Shown: positions 4,977 to 28,041 of the stretch, piece by piece | Layout: the number at the start of each line of letters is the position of its first letter | How positions within the stretch are numbered: the stretch's first letter is position 1 | Origin: Streptosporangiaceae bacterium | GTDB taxonomy: Bacteria; Actinomycetota; Actinomycetes; Streptosporangiales; Streptosporangiaceae | Direction: 5' to 3' | Assembly: GCA_036378315.1 (NCBI GenBank) | Contig: DASUWU010000046.1 | Coordinates: forward strand, 1,253-65,252 | DNA length: 64,000 nucleotides | Notes under the pieces: model-generated | The model's database searches: none | What the model saw: the letters and a program-made list of their open reading frames with translations, nothing else | Told to the model about the DNA's origin: nothing | Program-made: the position numbers and the translations under genes

Positions 4977-6116
4977 ATGCGCCGTGCCCATCCGATCGCG
5001 CTCGCCGGGGCGACCGCCGTGCTGATCTCGACCCTCACCGCCTGCGGCGACGACGCGGCCAAGGGCACGGGCGGCGCGAGCACGATCGCGGTCACCGCGA
5101 CGGACAGCTCCTGCGCGATCGCCAAGAAGAGCGTGGCCGCCGGAGCCGCGACGTTCAAGGTGACCAACAACGGGAGCCGCCCGACCGAGCTCGAGATCCT
5201 CAAGGCGGACGGCAAGGTCGTCTCCGAGCGGGAGAACATCGGGCCGGGAACCGCCGCCGAGCTGACCGTGCAGCTGGCCGCCGGGACGTACAAGGTGTTG
5301 TGCAGTCCGGGGATGACGGGCAAGGGCCCCAGCCAGGTCATCGTCGTCTCGGGGAGCAGCGGCGGCGGGCGCGCCGACCTGTCTCTGGAGCAGGCCGTCG
5401 CCGGCTATCGCGGCTACGTCAAGGACCAGGTCGACGACACCCTCGCCAAGACCAGGACGTTCGCCGCCGCCGTGAAGGCGGGCGACGTCGCGCGGGCCAA
5501 GAAGCTGTACGCGCCGTCGCGGGTCGGCTGGGAGCGCATCGAGCCGGTCGCCGAGTCGTTCGGCGACATCGATCCCAAGGTCGACCTGCGCGAGGCCGAC
5601 CTCGAGCAGGGCCAGACGTGGACCGGCTGGCACCGCCTGGAGAAGGCGCTGTGGAAGGCGGGGTCGGTCAAGGGCCAGCAGCAGTACGCCGGCCGGCTCG
5701 TCGCCGATCTCGAGGCGCTCCAGCAGCGGGTGGGCGGCGCGGAGATCACCCCCACGTCCATGAGCAACGGCGCCAAGGAGCTCCTCGACGAGGTGGCGAC
5801 CGGAAAGATCACCGGTGAGGAGGAGGCGTACTCCCACACCGACCTCGTCGACTTCGCTGCCAACGTCGACGGCGCCGAGAAGGTCTACCGGCTCCTCGAG
5901 CCGGTCGTCCGGCAGCGGGACGCCGCGCTCGCCGGCACCATCGACGACGAGTTCGCCAAGGTCAAGCGCCTGCTCGCCACGTACAAGGACGGCGCGGGCG
6001 ACGGCGGCTACGTCTCCTACGACACCGTCGGCGAGGCCAAGCGCAAGGAGCTGTCGGACGCGGTCAACGCGCTCGGCGAGCCGCTGTCCCGGCTGGCGGG
6101 CGTGGTGGCCAGGTGA
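4977..6116 (+). CDS. efeO: EfeO-like iron uptake lipoprotein (cupredoxin-like N-domain plus M75 domain)
   Basis: Lipobox LISTLTAC, cupredoxin-like GTYKVLCSPGMTGKG, and the C-terminal HTD..E imelysin-like region. It is translationally coupled to efeB. Confidence 0.85.
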   Translation: MRRAHPIALAGATAVLISTLTACGDDAAKGTGGASTIAVTATDSSCAIAKKSVAAGAATFKVTNNGSRPTELEILKADGKVVSERENIGPGTAAELTVQLAAGTYKVLCSPGMTGKGPSQVIVVSGSSGGGRADLSLEQAVAGYRGYVKDQVDDTLAKTRTFAAAVKAGDVARAKKLYAPSRVGWERIEPVAESFGDIDPKVDLREADLEQGQTWTGWHRLEKALWKAGSVKGQQQYAGRLVADLEALQQRVGGAEITPTSMSNGAKELLDEVATGKITGEEEAYSHTDLVDFAANVDGAEKVYRLLEPVVRQRDAALAGTIDDEFAKVKRLLATYKDGAGDGGYVSYDTVGEAKRKELSDAVNALGEPLSRLAGVVAR

Positions 6117-19478: not shown

Positions 19479-20909
19479 CTAGAGCCCGATGGACTGGCGG
19501 AGGAGTGGGGCGTTGCGGCGCGCGACCGGGACCGTCTCGTGGGTGCGCGCGTCGGTGATGAGCAGCAGGGTTCCCTTGAAGCCCTGCTCCACTTCTCTGA
19601 TCCGGCCGAGGTTGACGAGGAACCGGCGGTGCACGCGCAGGAATCCCTTGTCCTGGAGTTGTTGCTCGAGGCGGTCGAGGCCGCGGGTGGCGGCCTGCAG
19701 GCGTCCTTGGTCGCTCGTCAGCCACACCTTGTTGTGGTCGGCCTCGGCGAACCGGATCTCGCGGGGATCGAGGAGCACCCACCGGTCGTCGCGCAGCGCG
19801 ATGACCCGGCTCGGCAGCGCGCGGGGCTGGGAGGAGGCGAACAGCGGGTCGCTCGACGACGCCCCGAAGGTGTCGGGAGATCCGAAGGCGGCCAGCACGC
19901 CGATCACCCTGGTACCGGTGAGCACCGGGCGTACCGAGACCCAGACGGGTGTGCCCAGGAACGGCACGAAGATCTGTGTCGATCCGGTCCAGTGCGGATC
20001 CTGCCTGGCGCGCTCGACGGCGCGCCGGGTCAGCCGCGGCAGGGTGGGCAGTTGCGGAGTCCACCGGTGGGCCGGCGCGTACGCCGGCGTATCAGCCGGC
20101 GTGCCCATCAGCGCGGCCGCCTCGCTGTTCGCGAGCACGACGTTTCCGGCCGGATCGATCGCGGCGAGCGGGGTCGCCGGCGCCAGGCGGGCGTCGGTGA
20201 GGGCGGCGGCCAGGAGCGTGCCGCTCTGGTGTGCGCGCTGCCGCAGCTTGGCCTCGGTGGCCGCGGCGACTTTGCGCAGCCACGGCAGGACGGCGTCCGA
20301 CAGCGGTGACTTCCAGCACGAGATGTTCAGGACGGCGAGCGGTTCCTGGGTGACGACGTCACGGACGGCGACGCCCGCGCACGCCCACGGATGGAAGCCG
20401 CGGCACCAGTGCTCGGGCCCCCTGACCATGACCGGGCGGTGGCTTTCCAGCGCCGTCCCCATGCCGTTCGTCCCGCTCGCCCATTCGGACCAGGTGAACC
20501 AGGGAGCGAGGTTCCGGTCCGCGGCGAGGTGCAGGATGCGCCGGCTTCCCCAGGTCGCCAGGATGCGCCCGTCGGAGTCGGCCACGGTGACCAGCCCGTC
20601 GAGGCCGTCGACCTCGCCGGCGGCGGAGGCTGCCAGGCCGCCGAGCTCGGCGAACACCACATCGTGGTCGATGGAGTGCGGGCTCATCTCGACCGCGGCC
20701 GGCGCCTGGTCCAACCCGGGGTCGACCTCGTATTCCTCCCGGCAGCGGTACCAGGACATGAGGATCTCGGGCCGGACCCCGCGGACGGCGTCCGCGCCCG
20801 CGGCGAAGCTCTCCCAGGCGGCGGTGGTCCGCCTCAGGTCGTCGTCGGCCAGTCCCGGTCCGCTCGTCGCGTGTCCGGTACCGCTCGTTCGGTCTCTCGC
20901 GCCGTTCAT
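19479..20909 (-). CDS. GAF-type sensor domain fused to a LytTR DNA-binding domain
   Basis: N-terminal ILMSWYRCREEYEVDPG plus a GAF-like core resembles AcoR-type sensory modules. The C-terminal IRFAEADHNKVWLTSDQGRLQAATRGLDRLEQQL..GFLRVHRRFLVNLGRI is a LytTR domain. Confidence 0.8.
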   Translation of the reverse strand: MNGARDRTSGTGHATSGPGLADDDLRRTTAAWESFAAGADAVRGVRPEILMSWYRCREEYEVDPGLDQAPAAVEMSPHSIDHDVVFAELGGLAASAAGEVDGLDGLVTVADSDGRILATWGSRRILHLAADRNLAPWFTWSEWASGTNGMGTALESHRPVMVRGPEHWCRGFHPWACAGVAVRDVVTQEPLAVLNISCWKSPLSDAVLPWLRKVAAATEAKLRQRAHQSGTLLAAALTDARLAPATPLAAIDPAGNVVLANSEAAALMGTPADTPAYAPAHRWTPQLPTLPRLTRRAVERARQDPHWTGSTQIFVPFLGTPVWVSVRPVLTGTRVIGVLAAFGSPDTFGASSSDPLFASSQPRALPSRVIALRDDRWVLLDPREIRFAEADHNKVWLTSDQGRLQAATRGLDRLEQQLQDKGFLRVHRRFLVNLGRIREVEQGFKGTLLLITDARTHETVPVARRNAPLLRQSIGL

Positions 20910-21079
20910 CCCATCCCCCTTTGCGGTCGGGGAAGAGCGATTCAGGATCGTGATCCGGACGCAACAACGACGTAATGAGCAACCCGCCGCACTGCTGACC
21001 CAGCACCCAGGCTAGCTGTCACGGGACGGCACACCAATAGTCAACCGCGACATGACTGTAGAAGTGGGGCGATGCGTAC

Positions 21080-22228
21080 ATGCGGGCCGTGGTGTACCTA
21101 AAGCCCTTCGAGGTGGGAGTTGAGGAAGTCCCCGACCCGCGCATCGAGCAGCCGAACGACGTGATCGTACGGATCACGTCCTCGTGCATCTGCGGGTCCG
21201 ACCTGCACATGTACGAGGGGCGAACATTGGCCGAGCCCGGCATCGTTTTCGGTCACGAGAATCTCGGGATCATCGAGGAGGTCGGCAGCGGCGTCACCCG
21301 CCTGGAGCAGGGTGACCGCGTCGTGATGCCGTTCAACGTGGCCTGCGGATTCTGCAAGAACTGCGTGGCCGGCCGTACCGGATTCTGCCTCACGGTCAAC
21401 CCGTCGGGCTTCGCCGGCGGCGCCTACGGCTATGTGGCCATGGGGCCGTATCCCGGCGGCCAGGCCGAATACCTGCGGGTGCCCTACGCCGACTTCAACT
21501 GCCTGCCGCTGCCGCCGGGCACCGAGCACGAGGCCGACTACGCGCTGCTCGCCGACATCTTCCCGACCGGGTACCACGGCTGCGAGCTCGCCGACGTCTC
21601 GCCAGGGGAGACGGTGGCCGTGTACGGCGCCGGGCCCGTCGGGCTGATGGCCGCGTACTCCGCGCAGCTCCGCGGGGCCTCCCGGGTCTTCGCCGTCGAT
21701 CGCGTGCCCGAGCGGCTCGCCAAGGCGCGGGAGATCGGCGCGATCCCCATCGACTTCTCCCAGGGCGACCCGGTCGAGCAGATCCGGGAGCAGACCGGCG
21801 GCGAAGGTACCGACAAAGGCATCGACGCGGTCGGGTACCAGGCGCTCACGCGGACCGCCGATCGTGAAGACCCGGCCACGGTCTTGAACCAGCTCGTACG
21901 GACCGTGCGCCCGACGGGCGCGCTCGGCGTCCCCGGCCTGTACGTGCCCGCCGACCCCGGCGGGGTCGACGAGCACGCCAGGAAGGGGATGTTGCGGGTC
22001 GCGATCGGCGCGCTGTTCGAGAAGGGACTGCGCGTGGGCACCGGGCAGGCGAACGTCAAGCGCTACAACCGGCAGCTGCGCGACATGATCACCACGGGCC
22101 GGGCCACGCCGAGCTTCGTGGTCTCGCACGAACTTCCGCTCGCCGACGCACCCGACGCCTACCGGAAATTCGACCAGCGCGTGGATGGCTACACCAAAGT
22201 CATCCTCAAACCCGACTCCATCCCATGA
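21080..22228 (+). CDS. fdhA: Zn-dependent, glutathione-independent formaldehyde dehydrogenase-like ADH
   Basis: ICGSDLHMYEGR, GHENLGIIEEVG, FNVACGFCKNCVAGRTGFCLTVNP..AGGAYGYV..GGQAEYLRVPYADFN and FPTGYHG closely track Pseudomonas FdhA as I remember it. Confidence 0.8.
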   Translation: MRAVVYLKPFEVGVEEVPDPRIEQPNDVIVRITSSCICGSDLHMYEGRTLAEPGIVFGHENLGIIEEVGSGVTRLEQGDRVVMPFNVACGFCKNCVAGRTGFCLTVNPSGFAGGAYGYVAMGPYPGGQAEYLRVPYADFNCLPLPPGTEHEADYALLADIFPTGYHGCELADVSPGETVAVYGAGPVGLMAAYSAQLRGASRVFAVDRVPERLAKAREIGAIPIDFSQGDPVEQIREQTGGEGTDKGIDAVGYQALTRTADREDPATVLNQLVRTVRPTGALGVPGLYVPADPGGVDEHARKGMLRVAIGALFEKGLRVGTGQANVKRYNRQLRDMITTGRATPSFVVSHELPLADAPDAYRKFDQRVDGYTKVILKPDSIP

Positions 22229-22346
22229 CCGTAGCCCCCAGGCGAGCATTGCGGAAATCCCTGTCCCGAGCTGCGCCATGCCGTCCAGGAACCATTCGTC
22301 CGCTTCGGCGGAGAAGCAATATCCGTTCTATTTAGGAGGTGACGTA

Positions 22347-22811
22347 ATGGCGACCCCCACCGACGATCGATCCCAACTGGTAAGCAAGTTGGGGCTGGAC
22401 CGGCAAAACGGGGCGGCGCTGGGCCGAGTGCTGGCCACGGGAAACATCGGTGAGGCCGAGGAGGGGCCCGACGGCCGCATGCGGGCCACCATCCGGATCA
22501 AGCCGGACGAGCTGGTCTACGACCCCTCGGTCCTCATCCTTCCCCATGGTGGTGACCTGGATATCGAGATCATCAACGATGACCTCAACACGCATTGCGC
22601 GCTCTTCCCGAGCAATGGCGACAGCCAGTTCATCTGGCTGGTGAACCATTCTCGGGGAACGGCGAGCATCAATCTCGACGGCCCGGGCTACTACTGGTAC
22701 AGCTCCCCCACAGGAAACGACGAAGGCCGGGGTCTGACCGGTGCCATCGTCGTGCTCGGGGAAGTTCCGCCGGAAGCCCGCCTCGACCGTCCGCAGCAGC
22801 CACGACCGTAG
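22347..22811 (+). CDS. Cupredoxin-like small protein associated with the PQQ dehydrogenase (no signal peptide)
   Basis: RBS aggaggt lies 7 nt before the ATG at 22347. The beta-rich sequence runs RATIRIKPDELVYDPSVLILPHGGDLDIEIINDDLNTHCALF...GYYWYSSPTGNDEGRGLTGAIVVLG. It ends 13 nt before the dehydrogenase gene. Confidence 0.75.
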   Translation: MATPTDDRSQLVSKLGLDRQNGAALGRVLATGNIGEAEEGPDGRMRATIRIKPDELVYDPSVLILPHGGDLDIEIINDDLNTHCALFPSNGDSQFIWLVNHSRGTASINLDGPGYYWYSSPTGNDEGRGLTGAIVVLGEVPPEARLDRPQQPRP

Positions 22812-22824
22812 AAAGGAGCAGGCG

Positions 22825-24513
22825 ATGACGGAATATGTGGACGCGGGACATGCCGTCGACTGGGGAACCCTGAGCGGGGTGCCCGGCAGCGCGCCGCCGG
22901 TGGCGCGGAATGTCGATTACCAGCGAATCCTCCAGGCCCGATCGACGGAGCCGCAGAACTGGCTCACCTATTTCGGTGCCTACGACGGGCAGCGCTACAG
23001 CCTGTTGGACCAGATCAACACCGACAACGTCCGGCGCCTCACCCCGGCGTGGGTGTTCCAGTGCGGGCCGGCCGGCCTGCAGGCGGGCGGCTCGACGTAC
23101 GCGTTCGAGGCGACCCCGATCGTGGTCGACGGCATCATGTACGTGACCGGATGGGACGGCTGGGTCTGGGCCCTCAACGCCGTGACCGGGCAGGAGCTCT
23201 GGCGCTACCACCACGCGACCCCGTTCGACACGTCGCTGTGCTGCGGCAACGTCAACCGCGGTGTGGCCGTGGCGCAGGGCAAGGTGTTCGTCGTGAGCCC
23301 CAACGCCCACGTCCTGGCGCTCGACGCCGAGACCGGCAAGTGCGTCTGGGACCGGACGAACGGCGACGTGCGGGCCGGGGAGAGCGCCACGCTCGCTCCG
23401 CTGGTCATCAAGGACAAGGTCATCGTCGGCAGCGCGGGCGGCGAGTTCGGCGTGCGGGGTCACCTCGACGCCTACGACCTGGAGACCGGGGAGCACGCCT
23501 GGCGCACCTACACCATCCCCAAGCCCGGGGAGCCGGGCTCGGAGACGTGGCCGGCGGACGGTGAGCAGTGGGCACGTGGTGGCGGGAATCCCTGGATCAC
23601 CCCCACCTACGACCCGGAGCTGAACCTCCTCTACACCGGGACCGGCAACCCGGCGCCCGACTTCGACGGCGACGTGCGCCCCGGCGACAACCTGTACACC
23701 GACTCGTGCATCGCGGTGAACCCCGACAACGGCGCGCTGGTGTGGCACTACCAGCACAACCCGCACGACCTGTGGGACTACGACAGCATCTCGGAGAACA
23801 TCCTCTTCGACCAGGGCGGTCGCAAGTTCCTCGGTCACTTCAACAAGAACGGCTACGGCTACGTGCTCGACCGCACCAACGGTGAGGTGGAGCGGGTGTT
23901 CCCGTTCGTCGACCGCATCGACTGGGGTGAGATCGACTCCAAGGGACAGATCACGGTCAAGAAGTACCCCGACAAGGAAGGGGAGCCGGTCCACTTCTAC
24001 CCGGGCCCGGGCGGCGGCAAGGAATGGACGCACGCGGCCTACAGCCCGCGGACCGAGCTCTTCTACGTCCCTGTGCAGGACGTCGGGGCGACGGCCACGC
24101 GGCGGCGCAGGGAGTTCAAGGAAGGTATCCCGTACTGGGGCGCCGGCGTCGCCGTGGACTCCGAGGGCATGGCGGGCTGCATCAGCGCCTTCGACCCGGC
24201 CACAGGTCGGGAGGTGTGGCGCTGGCGCAACGAGGTGCCGATGTGCGCGTCGGTGCTGGCCACGGCCGGCGACCTGGTGTTCGCCGGCGAACCCACCGGT
24301 GAGTTCAACGCGCTGAACGCCCGTACCGGTGAGCTGCTGTGGCAGTTCCAGTGCGGCAGCGGCCACCACAGCAGCCCGATGACCTACAGCGCCGGCGGGC
24401 GGCAGTACGTCGCCGTGCCGAGCGGCTGGGGCGGCTGGATCGAGGGGTTCGCGCCGGGCATGCTGGCCGGCACCCACGGAGCCGCGCTCTTCGCCTTCGC
24501 GCTGCCGGAATAG
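22825..24513 (+). CDS. PQQ-dependent dehydrogenase, methanol/ethanol family, lanthanide-type signature
   Basis: RBS gaaaggag before the ATG at 22825. Motifs seen: NWLTYFGAYDGQRYS, vicinal Cys TSLCCGNVNRG, GGGNPW, PHDLWDYDS, and propeller W-motifs. Confidence 0.92.
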   Translation: MTEYVDAGHAVDWGTLSGVPGSAPPVARNVDYQRILQARSTEPQNWLTYFGAYDGQRYSLLDQINTDNVRRLTPAWVFQCGPAGLQAGGSTYAFEATPIVVDGIMYVTGWDGWVWALNAVTGQELWRYHHATPFDTSLCCGNVNRGVAVAQGKVFVVSPNAHVLALDAETGKCVWDRTNGDVRAGESATLAPLVIKDKVIVGSAGGEFGVRGHLDAYDLETGEHAWRTYTIPKPGEPGSETWPADGEQWARGGGNPWITPTYDPELNLLYTGTGNPAPDFDGDVRPGDNLYTDSCIAVNPDNGALVWHYQHNPHDLWDYDSISENILFDQGGRKFLGHFNKNGYGYVLDRTNGEVERVFPFVDRIDWGEIDSKGQITVKKYPDKEGEPVHFYPGPGGGKEWTHAAYSPRTELFYVPVQDVGATATRRRREFKEGIPYWGAGVAVDSEGMAGCISAFDPATGREVWRWRNEVPMCASVLATAGDLVFAGEPTGEFNALNARTGELLWQFQCGSGHHSSPMTYSAGGRQYVAVPSGWGGWIEGFAPGMLAGTHGAALFAFALPE

Positions 24514-24553
24514 CGAGCGCAGCGGTCCCGCTCCGGCGGTCGCCGCCTCGTAA

Positions 24554-24589
24554 CACCATCTCGCTCTACATCACCATCTCGCTCTACAT
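24554..24589 (+). repeat. Perfect 2 x 18-bp tandem repeat just upstream of the pqqA RBS
   Basis: caccatctcgctctacat | caccatctcgctctacat, then c-ggggaggagg (RBS) and the pqqA ATG at 24609. Confidence 0.9.
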
Positions 24590-24608
24590 CGGGGAGGAGG
24601 TGACAAGC

Positions 24609-24707
24609 ATGGACATGGAGACCTGGGAGACCCCCGCTTGCGAAGAGATCAGAGTGTCCGCCGAGGCGAGCGCGTACATGAAGATCTGGGAGTACGGCGG
24701 CGACTAG
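24609..24707 (+). CDS. pqqA: PQQ precursor peptide
   Basis: 32 aa, MDMETWETPACEEIRVSAEASAYMKIWEYGGD. It fits the W-x-x-P...E-x-x-x-Y PqqA core (EASAY). The RBS is ggaggagg and pqqB-E follow. Confidence 0.85.
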   Translation: MDMETWETPACEEIRVSAEASAYMKIWEYGGD

Positions 24708-24854
24708 CCGGGCCGGGCGCCGGGCCGCGGCGGCATGGGGTCCGGCGCCCCCAGTCCGGCACGCGCGGGAAGGACGGGTCCCGGGCCCCGCGGCCCGGGC
24801 CGCGTCTCGGCGGGATCTCCGCGGGGTCCCGCCGGAGCCCGCGGCCCGGCAGCG

Positions 24855-24905
24855 GGCGTTCACAGGGCGGCGGGGTTCACAGGGCGGCGGGGTTCACAGG
24901 GCGGC
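24855..24905 (+). repeat. 3 x 17-bp tandem repeat in the pqqA-pqqB spacer
   Basis: ggcgttcacagggcggc | ggggttcacagggcggc | ggggttcacagggcggc. The repeat ends 20 nt before the pqqB GTG. Confidence 0.9.
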
Positions 24906-24924
24906 GGAAGGACGGCGGATCGGC

Positions 24925-25875
24925 GTGTGGGTGCGGGTGCTGGGATCGGCGGCCGGTGGCGGGTTCCCGCAGTGGAACTGCGCCTGCCCGTCGTGCGGTG
25001 CGGTGCGGGACGGGTCGCGGCCGGCTCGCCGGCGCACCCAGTCGTCGATCGCGGTGAGCGCCGACCGGCGGCTGTGGTTCCTGCTCAACGCCTCGCCCGA
25101 CATCCATGCCCAGATCGAGTCGTTCCCCGCCCTGCATCCGTCCGGCGGCAACCCAGGCGGCGGCCCTGTCGGCGGCCCTGTCGGCGGCCCAGGCGGCGGC
25201 CGGAAGGTCCCGCTGCGGGCGGTGGCGCTCACCGACGCCGAGCTCGACCACACGCTCGGGCTGCTGCTGCTCCGCGAGGGTGGCGGCGTCGAGCTGCACG
25301 CGACCGAGGCGGTGTACGACACACTCCGCGACGGGAGCTCGCTGCTCCGCACGCTCGAGGCGTACTGCCCTGTCGACTGGCATCCGGTCGTCCCGGACGC
25401 CGACGTGGAGCTGGGCGGCGGGCTGGCGTACCGGGCCTTCGACGTGCCCACGACGAAGCGGGCGCGGTTCGGCTCCGGCATCGGCGCCGGAAAGGGACGG
25501 GTCGTCGGCTACCGCCTCACCGGCGGGCGTGGCGGCCGGTCGCTGGTGTACCTGCCGGGCGTACAGGACCTCACGGCGGCGGTGCTCGACCAGCTGGACG
25601 GCTGCGCCTGCCTGCTGGTCGACGGCACCTGCTGGCGCGATGACGAGTTGGTCAGGCTGGGCCTGGCGGGCAAGACGGCGCGCGAGATGGGCCACGTGCC
25701 GATCGAGGGGCCGGGCGGCAGCCTCGAACGGCTGGCGCCGCTCCCCATCGAGCGCAAGATCTACATCCACATCAACAACACCAACCCGATCCTGCTCGAG
25801 GACTCGCCCGAGCGGCGCGTCCTGGAGCGGCACGGCATGGAAGTCGCCGTGGACGGGATGGAACTGCGGATCTGA
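24925..25875 (+). CDS. pqqB: PQQ biosynthesis protein B (metallo-beta-lactamase fold)
   Basis: VWVRVLGSAAGGGFPQWNCACPSC..., TDAELDHTLGLLLLRE, and IHINNTNPIL near the C-terminus. Confidence 0.92.
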   Translation: MWVRVLGSAAGGGFPQWNCACPSCGAVRDGSRPARRRTQSSIAVSADRRLWFLLNASPDIHAQIESFPALHPSGGNPGGGPVGGPVGGPGGGRKVPLRAVALTDAELDHTLGLLLLREGGGVELHATEAVYDTLRDGSSLLRTLEAYCPVDWHPVVPDADVELGGGLAYRAFDVPTTKRARFGSGIGAGKGRVVGYRLTGGRGGRSLVYLPGVQDLTAAVLDQLDGCACLLVDGTCWRDDELVRLGLAGKTAREMGHVPIEGPGGSLERLAPLPIERKIYIHINNTNPILLEDSPERRVLERHGMEVAVDGMELRI

Positions 25876-25884
25876 GGGCCATAG

Positions 25885-26577
25885 ATGACGCTGGCAATCG
25901 AGAACGAGAGCTTCCTCGCGGCGCTGCGCGCGCAGGGCCGCCGGTACCACGACCAGCACCCCTTCCACCGGAGGATGAACGAGGGCGCGCTGAGCCGCCG
26001 CCAGCTCCAGGGCTGGGCGGCCAATCGCTTCTACTACCAGGTGAATCTCCCGCGCAAGGACGCCGCCGTGGTGGCGAACTGCCCGGATCGCGAGGTACGC
26101 CGGCGCTGGATCCAGCGCATCCTCGACCACGACGGCACGGTGGACGGCGGGGGCGGGATCGAGGCGTGGCTGCGGCTGGGCCAGGCGCTGGGCCTGACCC
26201 GGGAGGAGCTGCTCGACGAGCGGCATGTCGTTCCGGGGGTACGGTTCGCCGTCGACGCCTACGTCACCTTCGCCCGTACCCGCCCGTGGGTCGAGGCGGT
26301 GGCCTCCTCGCTCACAGAGCTGTTCGCGCCGGATCTGATGGCCGAGCGGCTGGCCGCCTTCGAGCGGCACTACCCATGGATCGACCGTCAGGGATTGGCC
26401 TACTTCCGGGCCCGCCTGACGCAGGCGCCGCGCGACTCCCAGCACGCCATGCAGGTGGTCACCGAGCACTGCAGGACGGCCGACGAGCAGGCGGCAGCCG
26501 TCGCGGCGCTGTCGTTCAAGTGCGACGTGCTGTGGAGCATGCTGGACTCCATCGATCGCGCCTACCCGGACCGCTAG
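25885..26577 (+). CDS. pqqC: Pyrroloquinoline-quinone synthase
   Basis: [28 protein letters not shown] and the overall PqqC length (230 aa). Confidence 0.92.
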
Positions 26578-26579
26578 CC

Positions 26580-26921
26580 ATGCCGGCGCGGACCGTTGAC
26601 GATGCCGACCGCCCCCGCCTTGCCCGGCACGTCCGCCTGAGGTTCGACCGGGCGCGGGGCCGCCACGTGCTGCTGGCGCCCGAGGCGGTCTCGGTGCTGA
26701 ACGGCACGGGCGCCACCATCCTGGGTCTGTGCGACGGCCGGCGCACGGTCTCCGACATCGTGGCGGAGCTGCGCGCCGGCTACGACCGTGTGGACGGCGC
26801 CGAGGTACGGGACTTCATCGCCGGCCTTGTCACCAGGCGATGTGTCGAGGTCGGCGACGGGCCGGTAGCCGACGGACGGGTCGGCGACGGACGGGAGGCG
26901 GGGGATGGACGGACCGGATAG
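26580..26921 (+). CDS. pqqD: PQQ biosynthesis peptide chaperone
   Basis: From the ATG at 26580: RPRLARHVRLRFDRARGRHVLLAPEAVSVLNGTGATILGLCDGRRTVSDIVAEL. It overlaps the pqqE start. Confidence 0.88.
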   Translation: MPARTVDDADRPRLARHVRLRFDRARGRHVLLAPEAVSVLNGTGATILGLCDGRRTVSDIVAELRAGYDRVDGAEVRDFIAGLVTRRCVEVGDGPVADGRVGDGREAGDGRTG

Positions 26922-28041
26922 CCCGTTCGGCATGCTGGCCGAGCTCACCTATGCCTGCCCGCTGCACTGCGCGTACTGCTCCAACCCGCTCAACCTCGCC
27001 GACTACCGCGACGAGCTGACGACGGGGGAGTGGCTGCGGGTGATCGCCGAGGCCGCTGAGCTGGGGGTGCTGCAGCTGCACCTGTCGGGCGGCGAGCCGC
27101 TCCAGCGCCGCGACGTCGTCGAGATCGTCCGCGGCGCCGCCGGGCTCGGCCTGTACACGAACCTCATCACGAGCGCCATCGGCTTCTCCGCTCGCCGTGC
27201 CGAGCAGCTGCGCGCCGCCGGTCTCGACCACGTACAGATCAGCGTTCAGGCCGACGAGGCCGCCTTGTCCGACCGCCTGGCCGGCATGCCGTCGTTCGAC
27301 CGCAAGGTGGCGGCCGCCCGGCTGACGAAGAAGCTGGGCTGGCCGCTGACCCTCAACGTGGTCCTCCACCGGCAGAACATCGACCGGATCGGTCGCGTCC
27401 TCGAGCTCGCCGAGGAGCTGGACGCCGACCGCGTCGAGCTGGCCAACACGCAGTACTACGGCTGGGCCCTGCGCAACCGGGACGGGCTGCTGCCGAGCCG
27501 GGCCCAGCTCGACCGCGCCGAGACAGTGGTGCGTGCGGCTCGGGAGCGGCTGAACGGACGGATGCAGATCATCTACGTGGTCCCCGACTACTACAGCCGG
27601 TATCCCAAGGCCTGCATGGACGGCTGGGGACGGCGGCAGCTCACGGTGACGCCGAACGGCGACGTGCTGCCCTGCCCGACCGCGCATACGGTGCCGCTGC
27701 CGCGCGCCAGCGTGCGCGCGCACTCGCTGGCCTGGATCTGGCAGCGGTCACCCGCCTTCCAGCGTTTCCGCGGTACGGACTGGATGCCCGACCCCTGCCG
27801 CGGCTGCGACCGTCGCGAGCTCGACTTCGGCGGCTGCCGGTGCCAGGCGTTCCAGCTCACCGGGGACGCGGCCCGTACCGATCCGGTCTGCCATCTCTCG
27901 CCGGATCACGGAGTCGTCGCGGCGGCGGTGCGGGCCGCCAACGCGCCGGCCGCCCCGGACGCGCCGACCGGGGCGGCCGGGGACGCGCTCATCCCGCGAC
28001 CGCATCCGCGCGACGTGACCCGGCAAGGCCCACTTCAGTGA
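26905..28041 (+). CDS. pqqE: Radical SAM PQQ biosynthesis enzyme
   Basis: CPLHCAYCSN (CxxxCxxC) plus the C-terminal SPASM cysteines PCRGCDRRELDFGGCRCQA. Confidence 0.93.
   Translation: MDGPDSPFGMLAELTYACPLHCAYCSNPLNLADYRDELTTGEWLRVIAEAAELGVLQLHLSGGEPLQRRDVVEIVRGAAGLGLYTNLITSAIGFSARRAEQLRAAGLDHVQISVQADEAALSDRLAGMPSFDRKVAAARLTKKLGWPLTLNVVLHRQNIDRIGRVLELAEELDADRVELANTQYYGWALRNRDGLLPSRAQLDRAETVVRAARERLNGRMQIIYVVPDYYSRYPKACMDGWGRRQLTVTPNGDVLPCPTAHTVPLPRASVRAHSLAWIWQRSPAFQRFRGTDWMPDPCRGCDRRELDFGGCRCQAFQLTGDAARTDPVCHLSPDHGVVAAAVRAANAPAAPDAPTGAAGDALIPRPHPRDVTRQGPLQ

Follow-up and report, generated by a model that had tools for sequence, protein, structure and literature searches.

The window examined in this study is a stretch of 64,000 nucleotides from Streptosporangiaceae bacterium (contig DASUWU010000046.1, positions 1,253 to 65,252), and the gene of interest lies on its forward strand at 22347..22811, directly 5' of a gene that encodes a pyrroloquinoline quinone (PQQ)-dependent alcohol dehydrogenase. 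The product of this gene, referred to here as the partner, is a cupredoxin-like protein of the MSMEG_3727 family, and its pairing with a single clade of PQQ alcohol dehydrogenases is strict in either direction. The gene position that is held by a cytochrome c acceptor in the neighboring dehydrogenase clade is taken up in one clade by a blue-copper cupredoxin and in the Actinomycetota by a copper-less one. It is very likely that the protein is an obligate partner of the dehydrogenase that was derived from a blue-copper acceptor and that no longer contains type-1 copper. The best explanation as a whole, to which we give about an even chance, is that the partner is a docked adaptor, similar to a beta subunit, that descends from such an acceptor.

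The open reading frame (ORF) begins with an ATG at 22347, ends with a TAG stop at 22809-22811, and encodes 154 amino acids. A Shine-Dalgarno sequence, AGGAGG, can be read at 22334..22339 (+ strand), 7 nt 5' of the ATG, and 13 nt separate the stop from the ATG of the dehydrogenase gene (22825..24513, + strand; 562 amino acids, of the methanol/ethanol family, TIGR03075 at 628 bits and PF01011, no signal peptide). An original prediction, made from the letters of the window and their translations, had described the strong ribosome-binding site and the 13-nt spacing correctly, and the two peptides that it quoted are found in the protein (GYYWYSSPTGNDEGRGLTGAIVVLG at residues 114-138 and NTHC at residues 81-84). 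The ORF matches TIGR04339 over model positions 3-151 of 151 (283 bits against a cutoff of 75, E=3.6e-85) and PF23509 over its full length (272 bits against a cutoff of 27, E=1.2e-81), and 1958 homologues were found in the databases. It is therefore a genuine gene and an ordinary member of a catalogued family, and the "PQQ-associated" family near mycobacterial PQQ dehydrogenases that the prediction half remembered does exist. TIGR04339 is graded as a "hypothetical equivalog" by NCBI, and the records of the family carry the names "PQQ-associated", "PQQ system protein" and, in older records, "copper oxidase". A Pfam scan of the partner to E=1 returned PF23509 and a weak match to Cupredoxin_1 and nothing else; the scan gave no EF-hand or other recognised lanthanide-binding domain and no cytochrome match, and the protein, with its single Cys, has no CxxCH heme motif. 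A few much longer proteins of 738-1777 amino acids (P0230, P0234, P0241, P0248, P0256, P0257, P0263) each contain 4-12 weak matches to the family and are presumably cupredoxin-like repeat arrays.

The pairing of the two genes was determined starting from either gene. The dehydrogenase is directly downstream of the partner in 79 of 80 genome loci, the sole exception being a contig end, and these downstream dehydrogenases are 69-91% identical to that of the window. The same gene order is found in loci with a copper-type partner (L081, L082, L084-L088), in a lipoprotein clade (L083, L169) and in a transitional group (L171, L172), all of which are discussed below. For the reverse direction, metagenome contigs were scanned with the dehydrogenase and the region upstream of each match was inspected. 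Dehydrogenases that are at least 69% identical to that of the window have upstream a partner with Ser, Asp, and Leu at the copper-ligand positions (S/D/L) in all assessable loci (34/34), those that are 57-62% identical have a partner with Cys, His, and Met at these positions (C/H/M) in 6/6 loci, and those that are 40-47% identical have no family member upstream (0/36). In 28 of the 36 loci of this last group a same-strand ORF with a CxxCH motif, mostly of 250-345 amino acids, is located just 5' of the dehydrogenase gene; most of these ORFs end at the dehydrogenase start, and all four that were checked are cytochromes c (PF00034/PF13442). The suggestion that the partner would co-occur with actinobacterial PQQ dehydrogenases thus holds from either side.

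Because its gene sits in the slot of the cytochrome c acceptor, the copper-type partner can be regarded as the electron acceptor of its enzyme, and the ancestral role of the family is best read, from these sequence comparisons, as that of a dedicated electron acceptor for this dehydrogenase clade. This role would be comparable to that of amicyanin, the acceptor for methylamine dehydrogenase. Azurin, likewise, is the natural acceptor of a quinohemoprotein alcohol dehydrogenase (PMC8348568). In the Thermoanaerobaculia loci (L087:10312-12102; L088:5044-6834) a gene for a TonB-dependent receptor overlaps the end of the dehydrogenase gene, and this receptor may be involved in PQQ or lanthanide uptake.

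The distant relatives that allow the ligand positions to be assigned came from searching 1.84 billion cluster representatives exhaustively. A MAFFT alignment that combined all 351 sequences, with fragments and multi-domain matches among them, was set aside, and the ligand counts given here are regex-anchored tallies together with an alignment of two clades. One set of these relatives has the loop ...PG(L/Y)YWFGCPxxNHAGRGM(L/V)G... and an N-terminal signal peptide or lipobox. The ligands of this copper-type loop are spaced C-x4-H-x4-M in the family alignment, which we take to be the spacing of auracyanin and rusticyanin. The mapping of the ligands is unambiguous because the copper-type relatives align through the loop with C/H/M kept. 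In the former copper loop of the partner (residues 120-130, SPTGNDEGRGL, 22704..22736, + strand), which aligns to GCPxxNHAGRGM, the Cys has become Ser120, the His has become Asp125, the Ala that follows the His has become Glu126, and the Met has become Leu130. The N-terminal copper-ligand His corresponds to His83, which is invariant in all clades and aligns to the ligand His of pseudoazurin. The original prediction had read the Cys, His, and Met positions as Ser, Thr, and Leu; the assignments of Ser120 and Leu130 were right, but the equivalent of the His in the family alignment is Asp125 and not the Thr. Its view that a classical type-1 copper site seems impossible stands, as the partner cannot hold a blue copper center with all three of these ligands replaced.

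The two types are sharply separated. Position 120 is Cys in 100% of the copper-type relatives, and of the relatives of P0153, a protein of the copper type, 109 of 118 have C/H/M, while a regex-anchored tally gave S/D/L in ~230 sequences and C/H/M in 12. These tallies cover more than 200 sequences, in which changes at Ser120, Asp125, Glu126, and Leu130 are very rare and other combinations nearly absent; the invariance of the same residues in the two-clade conservation table is circular, since the clades were defined by them, and the tallies are independent of that. In the two-clade table the clades differ by a switch at positions 29, 120, 125, 126, 130, 131, and 133, and Asp54, Glu55, His67, Asp78, Asn81, Thr82, Asp92, Trp97, Asn100, His101, and Ser102 are additionally fixed in the copper-less clade. 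The copper and copper-less clades have in common the Gly/Pro framework of the fold, His83, and nearly the whole C-terminal tail (P141-x-x-A-x-L-D-R-P-x-Q-x-R-P).

The His-Cys pair (His83-Cys84, codons CAT TGC, 22593..22598, + strand) was originally described as retained, which is not the case, as the His of the copper-type relatives is followed by Ala, Met, or Val and Cys84 is specific to the actinobacterial clade. Within this clade Cys84 is found in ~88% of the sequences, the Cys is at position 85 instead in the Arthrobacter/Cryobacterium group, and the Mycobacterium loci (HAA) and the Rhodococcus loci (HSA) have no Cys here. An essential role for Cys84 as a ligand or in redox chemistry is unlikely because it is non-ancestral, shifted in some loci and absent in others. 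His101 is 91% conserved in the actinobacterial clade, in which His83 is the only invariant His. Two other roles for these residues were considered and set aside. A thiol-disulfide relay through Cys84 and the vicinal Cys139-Cys140 pair of the dehydrogenase (LCCG, 23236..23247, + strand, conserved in all clades) would depend on a Cys that is dispensable, and the potential of PQQ is far too high for disulfide reduction. A hydrolase triad made up of Ser120, His83, and Asp125 would place these residues in what is a buried metal pocket, and there is no homology to hydrolases.

The two types also differ in taxonomy and in export. The copper-type sources that can be named belong to the Armatimonadota, the Acidobacteriota/Thermoanaerobaculia, and the Verrucomicrobiales, and the S/D/L type is found in the Actinomycetota, from Rubrobacter and the Solirubrobacterales through Streptomyces, Mycobacterium, and Arthrobacter. 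Among 115 copper-type sequences 95% have a hydrophobic stretch at the N-terminus, versus 1% of 162 actinobacterial-type sequences, and 48% of the copper-type sequences have a lipobox-like N-terminus. The partner in the window has no hydrophobic N-terminal stretch, in agreement with the earlier statement that it lacks a signal peptide. The dehydrogenases of the copper-type loci carry a signal peptide or a lipobox, whereas the window dehydrogenase has neither, and the gaps between the partner and dehydrogenase genes are 16-60 nt in most loci, which is too short to accommodate a signal peptide. On the evidence of these N-termini, both proteins appear to have lost their export signals and to have become cytoplasmic in the Actinomycetota. 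The loss of the copper ligands fits with this location, since cytoplasmic proteins of bacteria are not known to have access to copper.

The family has a third clade, made up of exported lipoproteins (L083:1834-2361; L169:7001-7519; P0175, P0389-P0407), one of which is from a named organism, Woeseia sp. In the loop of these proteins Ser/Gln/Met or Asp/His/Met replaces Cys/His/Met, and they are still followed by the gene for a lipoprotein PQQ dehydrogenase. The transitional group (L171:3380-5428; L172:682-3070; P0415-P0417) has no signal peptide, has PHC after the ligand His, and has Ser/Asn-Glu/Leu in the loop. The dehydrogenase of this group starts with a hydrophobic segment that resembles a Tat signal or a membrane anchor (M..NRQQLSA...RKSRRK), and judging from these N-termini the export of a pre-formed complex of the two proteins is a possibility.

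The ligand states of these clades bear on whether the partner is still an electron carrier, which we consider unlikely though not lightly dismissed. The remodelled pocket (His83, Asp125, Glu126, Ser120, and perhaps His101/Cys84) would then bind a metal other than blue copper, such as iron or type-2-like copper, and pass electrons from PQQH2 to a high-potential cytoplasmic acceptor (O2, or H2O2 via catalase-peroxidase). Such a role would be consistent with the ancestral role of the family and its position in the slot of an electron acceptor, with the near-invariance of Ser120, Asp125, Glu126, and Leu130 in the tallies, and with the His/Asp/His/Met set found in some of the exported relatives, which resembles engineered azurin Cys112Asp, a protein that still binds copper. 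PQQ has a potential of ~+90 mV and cannot readily reduce menaquinone or NAD+, and therefore a cytoplasmic PQQ enzyme needs an unusual acceptor. A candidate for such an acceptor pathway is found in the gene neighborhood: a KatG-like catalase-peroxidase (PF00141, for example L018:5448-7727, + strand) is encoded in 44 of the 80 related loci, mostly on the same strand, between the gene for a GAF-LytTR regulator and the partner gene, and mostly directly upstream of the latter. MSMEG_3729 is one of three M. smegmatis katG genes (PMC9325904). However, no katG was found in the window, where a Zn-dependent dehydrogenase gene occupies that place, and there is no universal downstream acceptor gene. The pocket has a single invariant His, as His101 and Cys84 both vary, and the members of the lipoprotein clade with Ser/Gln/Met, a poor metal site, keep the pairing with the dehydrogenase. 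Copper proteins are also, to our knowledge, essentially absent from the bacterial cytoplasm.

The proximity of katG raises the further idea that a new hard-ligand metal site (His83, Asp125, Glu126) couples alcohol oxidation to O2/peroxide chemistry in the cytoplasm, which we regard as improbable. The electrons would either be passed to KatG, giving an alcohol:H2O2 oxidoreductase, or be passed to O2 to form H2O2 that is then removed by KatG. Because of the KatG link this is the most interesting of the possibilities; if true, it would give the PQQ enzymes of monoderm bacteria that have only menaquinone a soluble outlet for electrons in the cytoplasm, and we know of nothing comparable.

The fold of the partner was predicted with AlphaFold2 (AF2) from a 26-sequence alignment. 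The model has a mean pLDDT of 81; two helices at the N-terminus precede eight to nine strands at ~90, and the tail at the C-terminus is of low confidence. When it was compared with the PDB using Foldseek, the list was headed by cupredoxins (E ~1e-6 to 1e-7, probability 1.00), with auracyanin (6kol), Cupredoxin_1 proteins (4hci/4hcf/4hcg), CuA domains, and AcoP as top matches. A sequence-profile match to pseudoazurin (3tu6) was obtained with E=4.8e-6, and plastocyanins and the type-1 domain of the nitrite reductase NirK were also matched. The profile alignment places the family His on the pseudoazurin ligand His and the YW(F/Y)xS...GRGL loop on its Cys-His-Met loop (C78/H81/M86). The partner is thus predicted to adopt a Greek-key cupredoxin beta-sandwich, as the shape of its C-terminal strand had suggested from the outset.

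The protein can be divided into three parts. The N-terminal extension (residues 4-31, 22356..22439, + strand) is predicted to form two helices with pLDDT 57-67; it is specific to the family and is partly conserved in every clade (N21, R27, and G32 in the conservation table). The core beta-sandwich (residues 34-136, 22446..22754, + strand) contains the AF2 strands with pLDDT ~90 and is the part supported by the Foldseek and profile matches. The C-terminal tail, EVPPEARLDRPQQPRP (residues 139-154, 22761..22808, + strand), has pLDDT 51-61, and its residues P141, A144, L146, D147, R148, P149, Q151, R153, and P154 are conserved at >=0.9 in both the copper and the copper-less clades. The conserved residues of the tail and of the N-terminal region are also conserved in the lipoprotein clade, regardless of ligand state. 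The tail combines low model confidence with deep conservation and is probably a docking peptide. Judged by the order of the strands and the usual cupredoxin topology, the former copper site should be ringed by the loops at residues 52-61, 78-82, 99-102, and 120-129, a face that would now be acidic.

The nearest solved structure to the window dehydrogenase is that of the lanthanide-dependent PedH (6zcv, E=8.5e-116). The WDYD sequence of the dehydrogenase (Asp318-Tyr-Asp320, 23773..23784, + strand) places a D-x-D pair on the WDFD of PedH, and D-Y-D is, as we take it from what is established for XoxF and PedH, the Asp pattern of the lanthanide type. The window dehydrogenase is therefore, by this alignment, probably a lanthanide-type enzyme. 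This bears on the idea that the partner is a cofactor chaperone, with an oxygen-rich loop (Ser, Thr, Asn, Asp, Glu) that would bind Ln3+, Ca2+, or PQQ for delivery to the cytoplasmic dehydrogenase. Such a function would be in keeping with the alignment to PedH, with the conserved Asp, Glu, and Asn residues that the actinobacterial clade has gained at positions 54, 55, 78, 81, 92, 100, 125, and 126, and with the gene order and the tight coupling to the genes of the enzyme and of PQQ synthesis. Nevertheless, the copper-type partners serve D-Y-D enzymes without having the acidic residues, and lanthanide loading is for this reason not the general job of the family. Together with the negative Pfam scan for EF-hand and known lanthanide-binding domains, and with the co-evolution described next, which links the partner to the enzyme and not to PqqB/C/E, this makes a chaperone role quite improbable in our view.

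The co-evolution of the partner and the dehydrogenase was examined by comparing pairwise identities in 47 loci. The mean pairwise identity is 0.77 for the dehydrogenase, 0.74 for the partner, 0.74 for PqqC, 0.71 for PqqE, and 0.65 for PqqB. The identities of the partner and the dehydrogenase are correlated with r=0.82, and PqqB/C/E correlate among themselves at 0.86-0.93. The correlation of the partner with PqqB/C/E is 0.52-0.69, and that of either the partner or the dehydrogenase with the Pqq proteins is 0.52-0.72. Because the value for the pair is well above those with the Pqq proteins, the partner and the dehydrogenase form a co-evolving module of their own. The same data bear on whether the partner, in which only one of the four copper ligands is left, is a functionless, decaying relic held in place by its operon position alone. 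The conservation of the partner across orders and two classes of Actinomycetota equals that of PqqC and is above that of PqqB and PqqE, no locus has a broken reading frame, conservation reaches at least 98% at more than 60 positions, and the gene has its own strong ribosome-binding site, all of which leaves next to no probability for a relic.

Additionally, a change of charge is found on both sides of the pair. The dehydrogenase contains an RRRR sequence (Arg426-429, 24100..24111, + strand) that is found only in enzymes paired with a copper-less partner and that aligns to residues I441-E444 of PedH (6zcv). It is present in every actinobacterial locus with this region aligned (78 loci), whereas the region is a hydrophobic F[KR][IL]xxx in six enzymes with copper-type partners and LRHV in the transitional group. 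On the side of the partner, Asp125-Glu126, Asp54, Glu55, and Asp78 are conserved only in the actinobacterial clade.

The original prediction had offered a non-copper redox partner, a lanthanide chaperone, or a scaffold as possible roles, and of these a scaffold or subunit fits best with the comparative data. In the proposed course of events, the partner in diderm phyla would be an exported type-1 blue-copper protein that accepts electrons from the dehydrogenase. In the Actinomycetota the export signals would have been lost from both proteins, and the Cys, His, and Met ligands would have been replaced by the invariant Ser120, Asp125(-Glu126), and Leu130, with His83 kept and no blue copper bound. 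The partner would still dock on the dehydrogenase as a stoichiometric unit similar to a beta subunit, making contact through its N-terminal helices and its C-terminal PxEAxLDRPxQPRP tail, while the acidified face of the former copper site would pair with the clade-specific RRRR loop of the enzyme. In place of a redox metal, a hydrogen-bond network of His, Asp, and Ser would fill the former metal pocket, so that the partner would act as an adaptor or stabilizer, a "fossil" electron acceptor that carries no electrons. Physical docking, the location of the interface, and the loss of redox activity are what we infer from the comparisons, and that the docked subunit is redox-dead with a His-Asp-Ser network in its pocket is a tentative proposal whose chance of being right we put at somewhat under even. 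The docked-subunit reading is favored mainly because the exported lipoprotein clade lost the thiolate yet kept the pairing, the tail, and the N-terminal region.

Several points weigh against this docked-subunit reading. A site in decay would not have to keep its residues, yet the replaced ligand positions do not vary, and a new hard-metal site could be formed just as well by His83, Asp125, Glu126, and Ser120. A redox-dead partner leaves the electron acceptor of the cytoplasmic PQQ enzyme unexplained, and the frequent presence of katG hints at peroxide or oxygen chemistry tied to this enzyme, of which a docked subunit makes no use. The switch of RRRR together with the Asp-Glu pair is suggestive, but it is a single-branch event and not a statistical correlation, and it is from strand order and general topology only that we infer a common "northern" face for Asp54, Glu55, Asp78, Asn100, His101, and the 120-129 loop. 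Moreover, no functional or experimental study of the MSMEG_3727 family was found in the literature, which contains mentions of the cluster only. The M. smegmatis cluster is mentioned in passing (PMC3023750, PMC6529628), and the literature found on lanthanide enzymes does not treat the pair of partner and dehydrogenase.

The dehydrogenase gene is followed on the same strand by the genes for PQQ synthesis. A candidate pqqA of 32 amino acids (MDMETWETPACEEIRVSAEASAYMKIWEYGGD, which contains ...EASAY...) is located at 24609..24707 (+ strand); it has no NCBIfam match, and its core, of the form WETP..EIRVSAExxAY, recurs in 26 related loci in the interval that separates pqqB from the dehydrogenase gene. 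This is followed by pqqB (24925-25875, TIGR02108), pqqC (25885-26577, TIGR02111), pqqD (about 26580-26921, TIGR03859), and pqqE (26905-28041, TIGR02109), all on the + strand and all above the cutoffs of their models. The gene 5' of the partner, at 21080..22228 (+ strand), encodes a Zn-dependent protein similar to alcohol and formaldehyde dehydrogenases (PF08240, PF00107); it scores 356 bits against TIGR02819, below the cutoff of 637, and resembles glutathione-independent formaldehyde dehydrogenase. This slot is filled in the same way in 9-10 Streptosporangiaceae-like loci and in a copper-type metagenome locus (L127, 401-1609), which suggests a recurring module that converts alcohol to aldehyde to acid. 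A transcription regulator with GAF and LytTR domains (PF01590, PF04397) is encoded divergently at 19479..20909 (- strand), homologues of it (46-88% identity) are found in most related loci, and it is a candidate for alcohol- or metal-responsive control of the operon. A scan of 20800-25000 for promoters and terminators gave none and is uninformative at 71% GC, and a Pfam scan of several other large ORFs in the window, some of which are probably in the wrong frame, gave nothing relevant. The iron-uptake protein EfeO, with which the loop of the partner had been compared in the original prediction, is indeed encoded in the window at 4977-6116 (+ strand; NF041757, E=1e-141); it has a lipoprotein-like N-terminus and the Cup-domain motif CSPGM, and it is not related to the finding on the partner.

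The gene in the window is not a new object, as its family is already catalogued, and its value therefore lies in the interpretation. PQQ alcohol dehydrogenases are textbook periplasmic enzymes that pass their electrons to cytochrome c. Here, one whole clade of enzymes with the lanthanide-type D-Y-D pairs with a cupredoxin in place of cytochrome c, and in the Actinomycetota both the enzyme and the partner are without export signals, with a partner that is free of copper ligands yet as conserved as the enzyme. This makes two ideas testable, that of an acceptor for PQQ electrons inside a menaquinone-only Gram-positive cell and that of a redox protein that has been turned into a structural subunit. 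It also provides a hypothesis at the level of function for a family whose annotation goes no further than "PQQ-associated", "PQQ system protein" or the misleading "copper oxidase".

Relative to characterized systems, the partner is a new variant of a cupredoxin acceptor that is cytoplasmic by its N-terminus, free of copper ligands, and proposed to be bound to a probably lanthanide-type PQQ enzyme. Within the MSMEG_3727 family itself no difference is seen: the window member is full-length and its neighborhood is that of the founding M. smegmatis cluster, MSMEG_3721-3727. The partner shares the Greek-key beta-sandwich and the N-terminal ligand His with the type-1 blue-copper proteins (auracyanin, pseudoazurin, plastocyanin, azurin, amicyanin), and azurin and amicyanin are dedicated acceptors of quinoprotein dehydrogenases, which is the role proposed for the ancestor of the family. 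Unlike these proteins, the partner has Ser/Asp/Leu for Cys/His/Met, has no signal peptide, and has in addition the N-terminal helical extension and the conserved Pro/Arg-rich C-terminal tail.

Cytochrome cL, XoxG, and cytochrome c550 occupy the same slot, immediately 5' and co-directional, in the nearest other dehydrogenase clade. The docking of methanol dehydrogenase and cytochrome cL is electrostatic, as the proposed pairing of RRRR with Asp-Glu would be. In contrast to the cytochrome c acceptors, the partner has no heme motif, its fold is unrelated, and no redox cofactor can be predicted for the actinobacterial form. If the docked-subunit model is right, the partner would be like MxaI, the beta subunit of MxaF, in being a small, non-catalytic, bound protein without a redox role; MxaI is a short, mostly helical peptide, and the partner shows no sequence or fold relationship to it. 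The replacement of the ligands can be compared with azurin Cys112Asp, the "type zero" copper variants, and the B. anthracis proteins 4hcf/4hcg, in which the thiolate is replaced by oxygen donors or the site takes copper or zinc. The window protein differs from these in that the second His and the Met are replaced as well, and it is the lipoprotein clade with His/Asp/His/Met that is the natural counterpart of azurin Cys112Asp.

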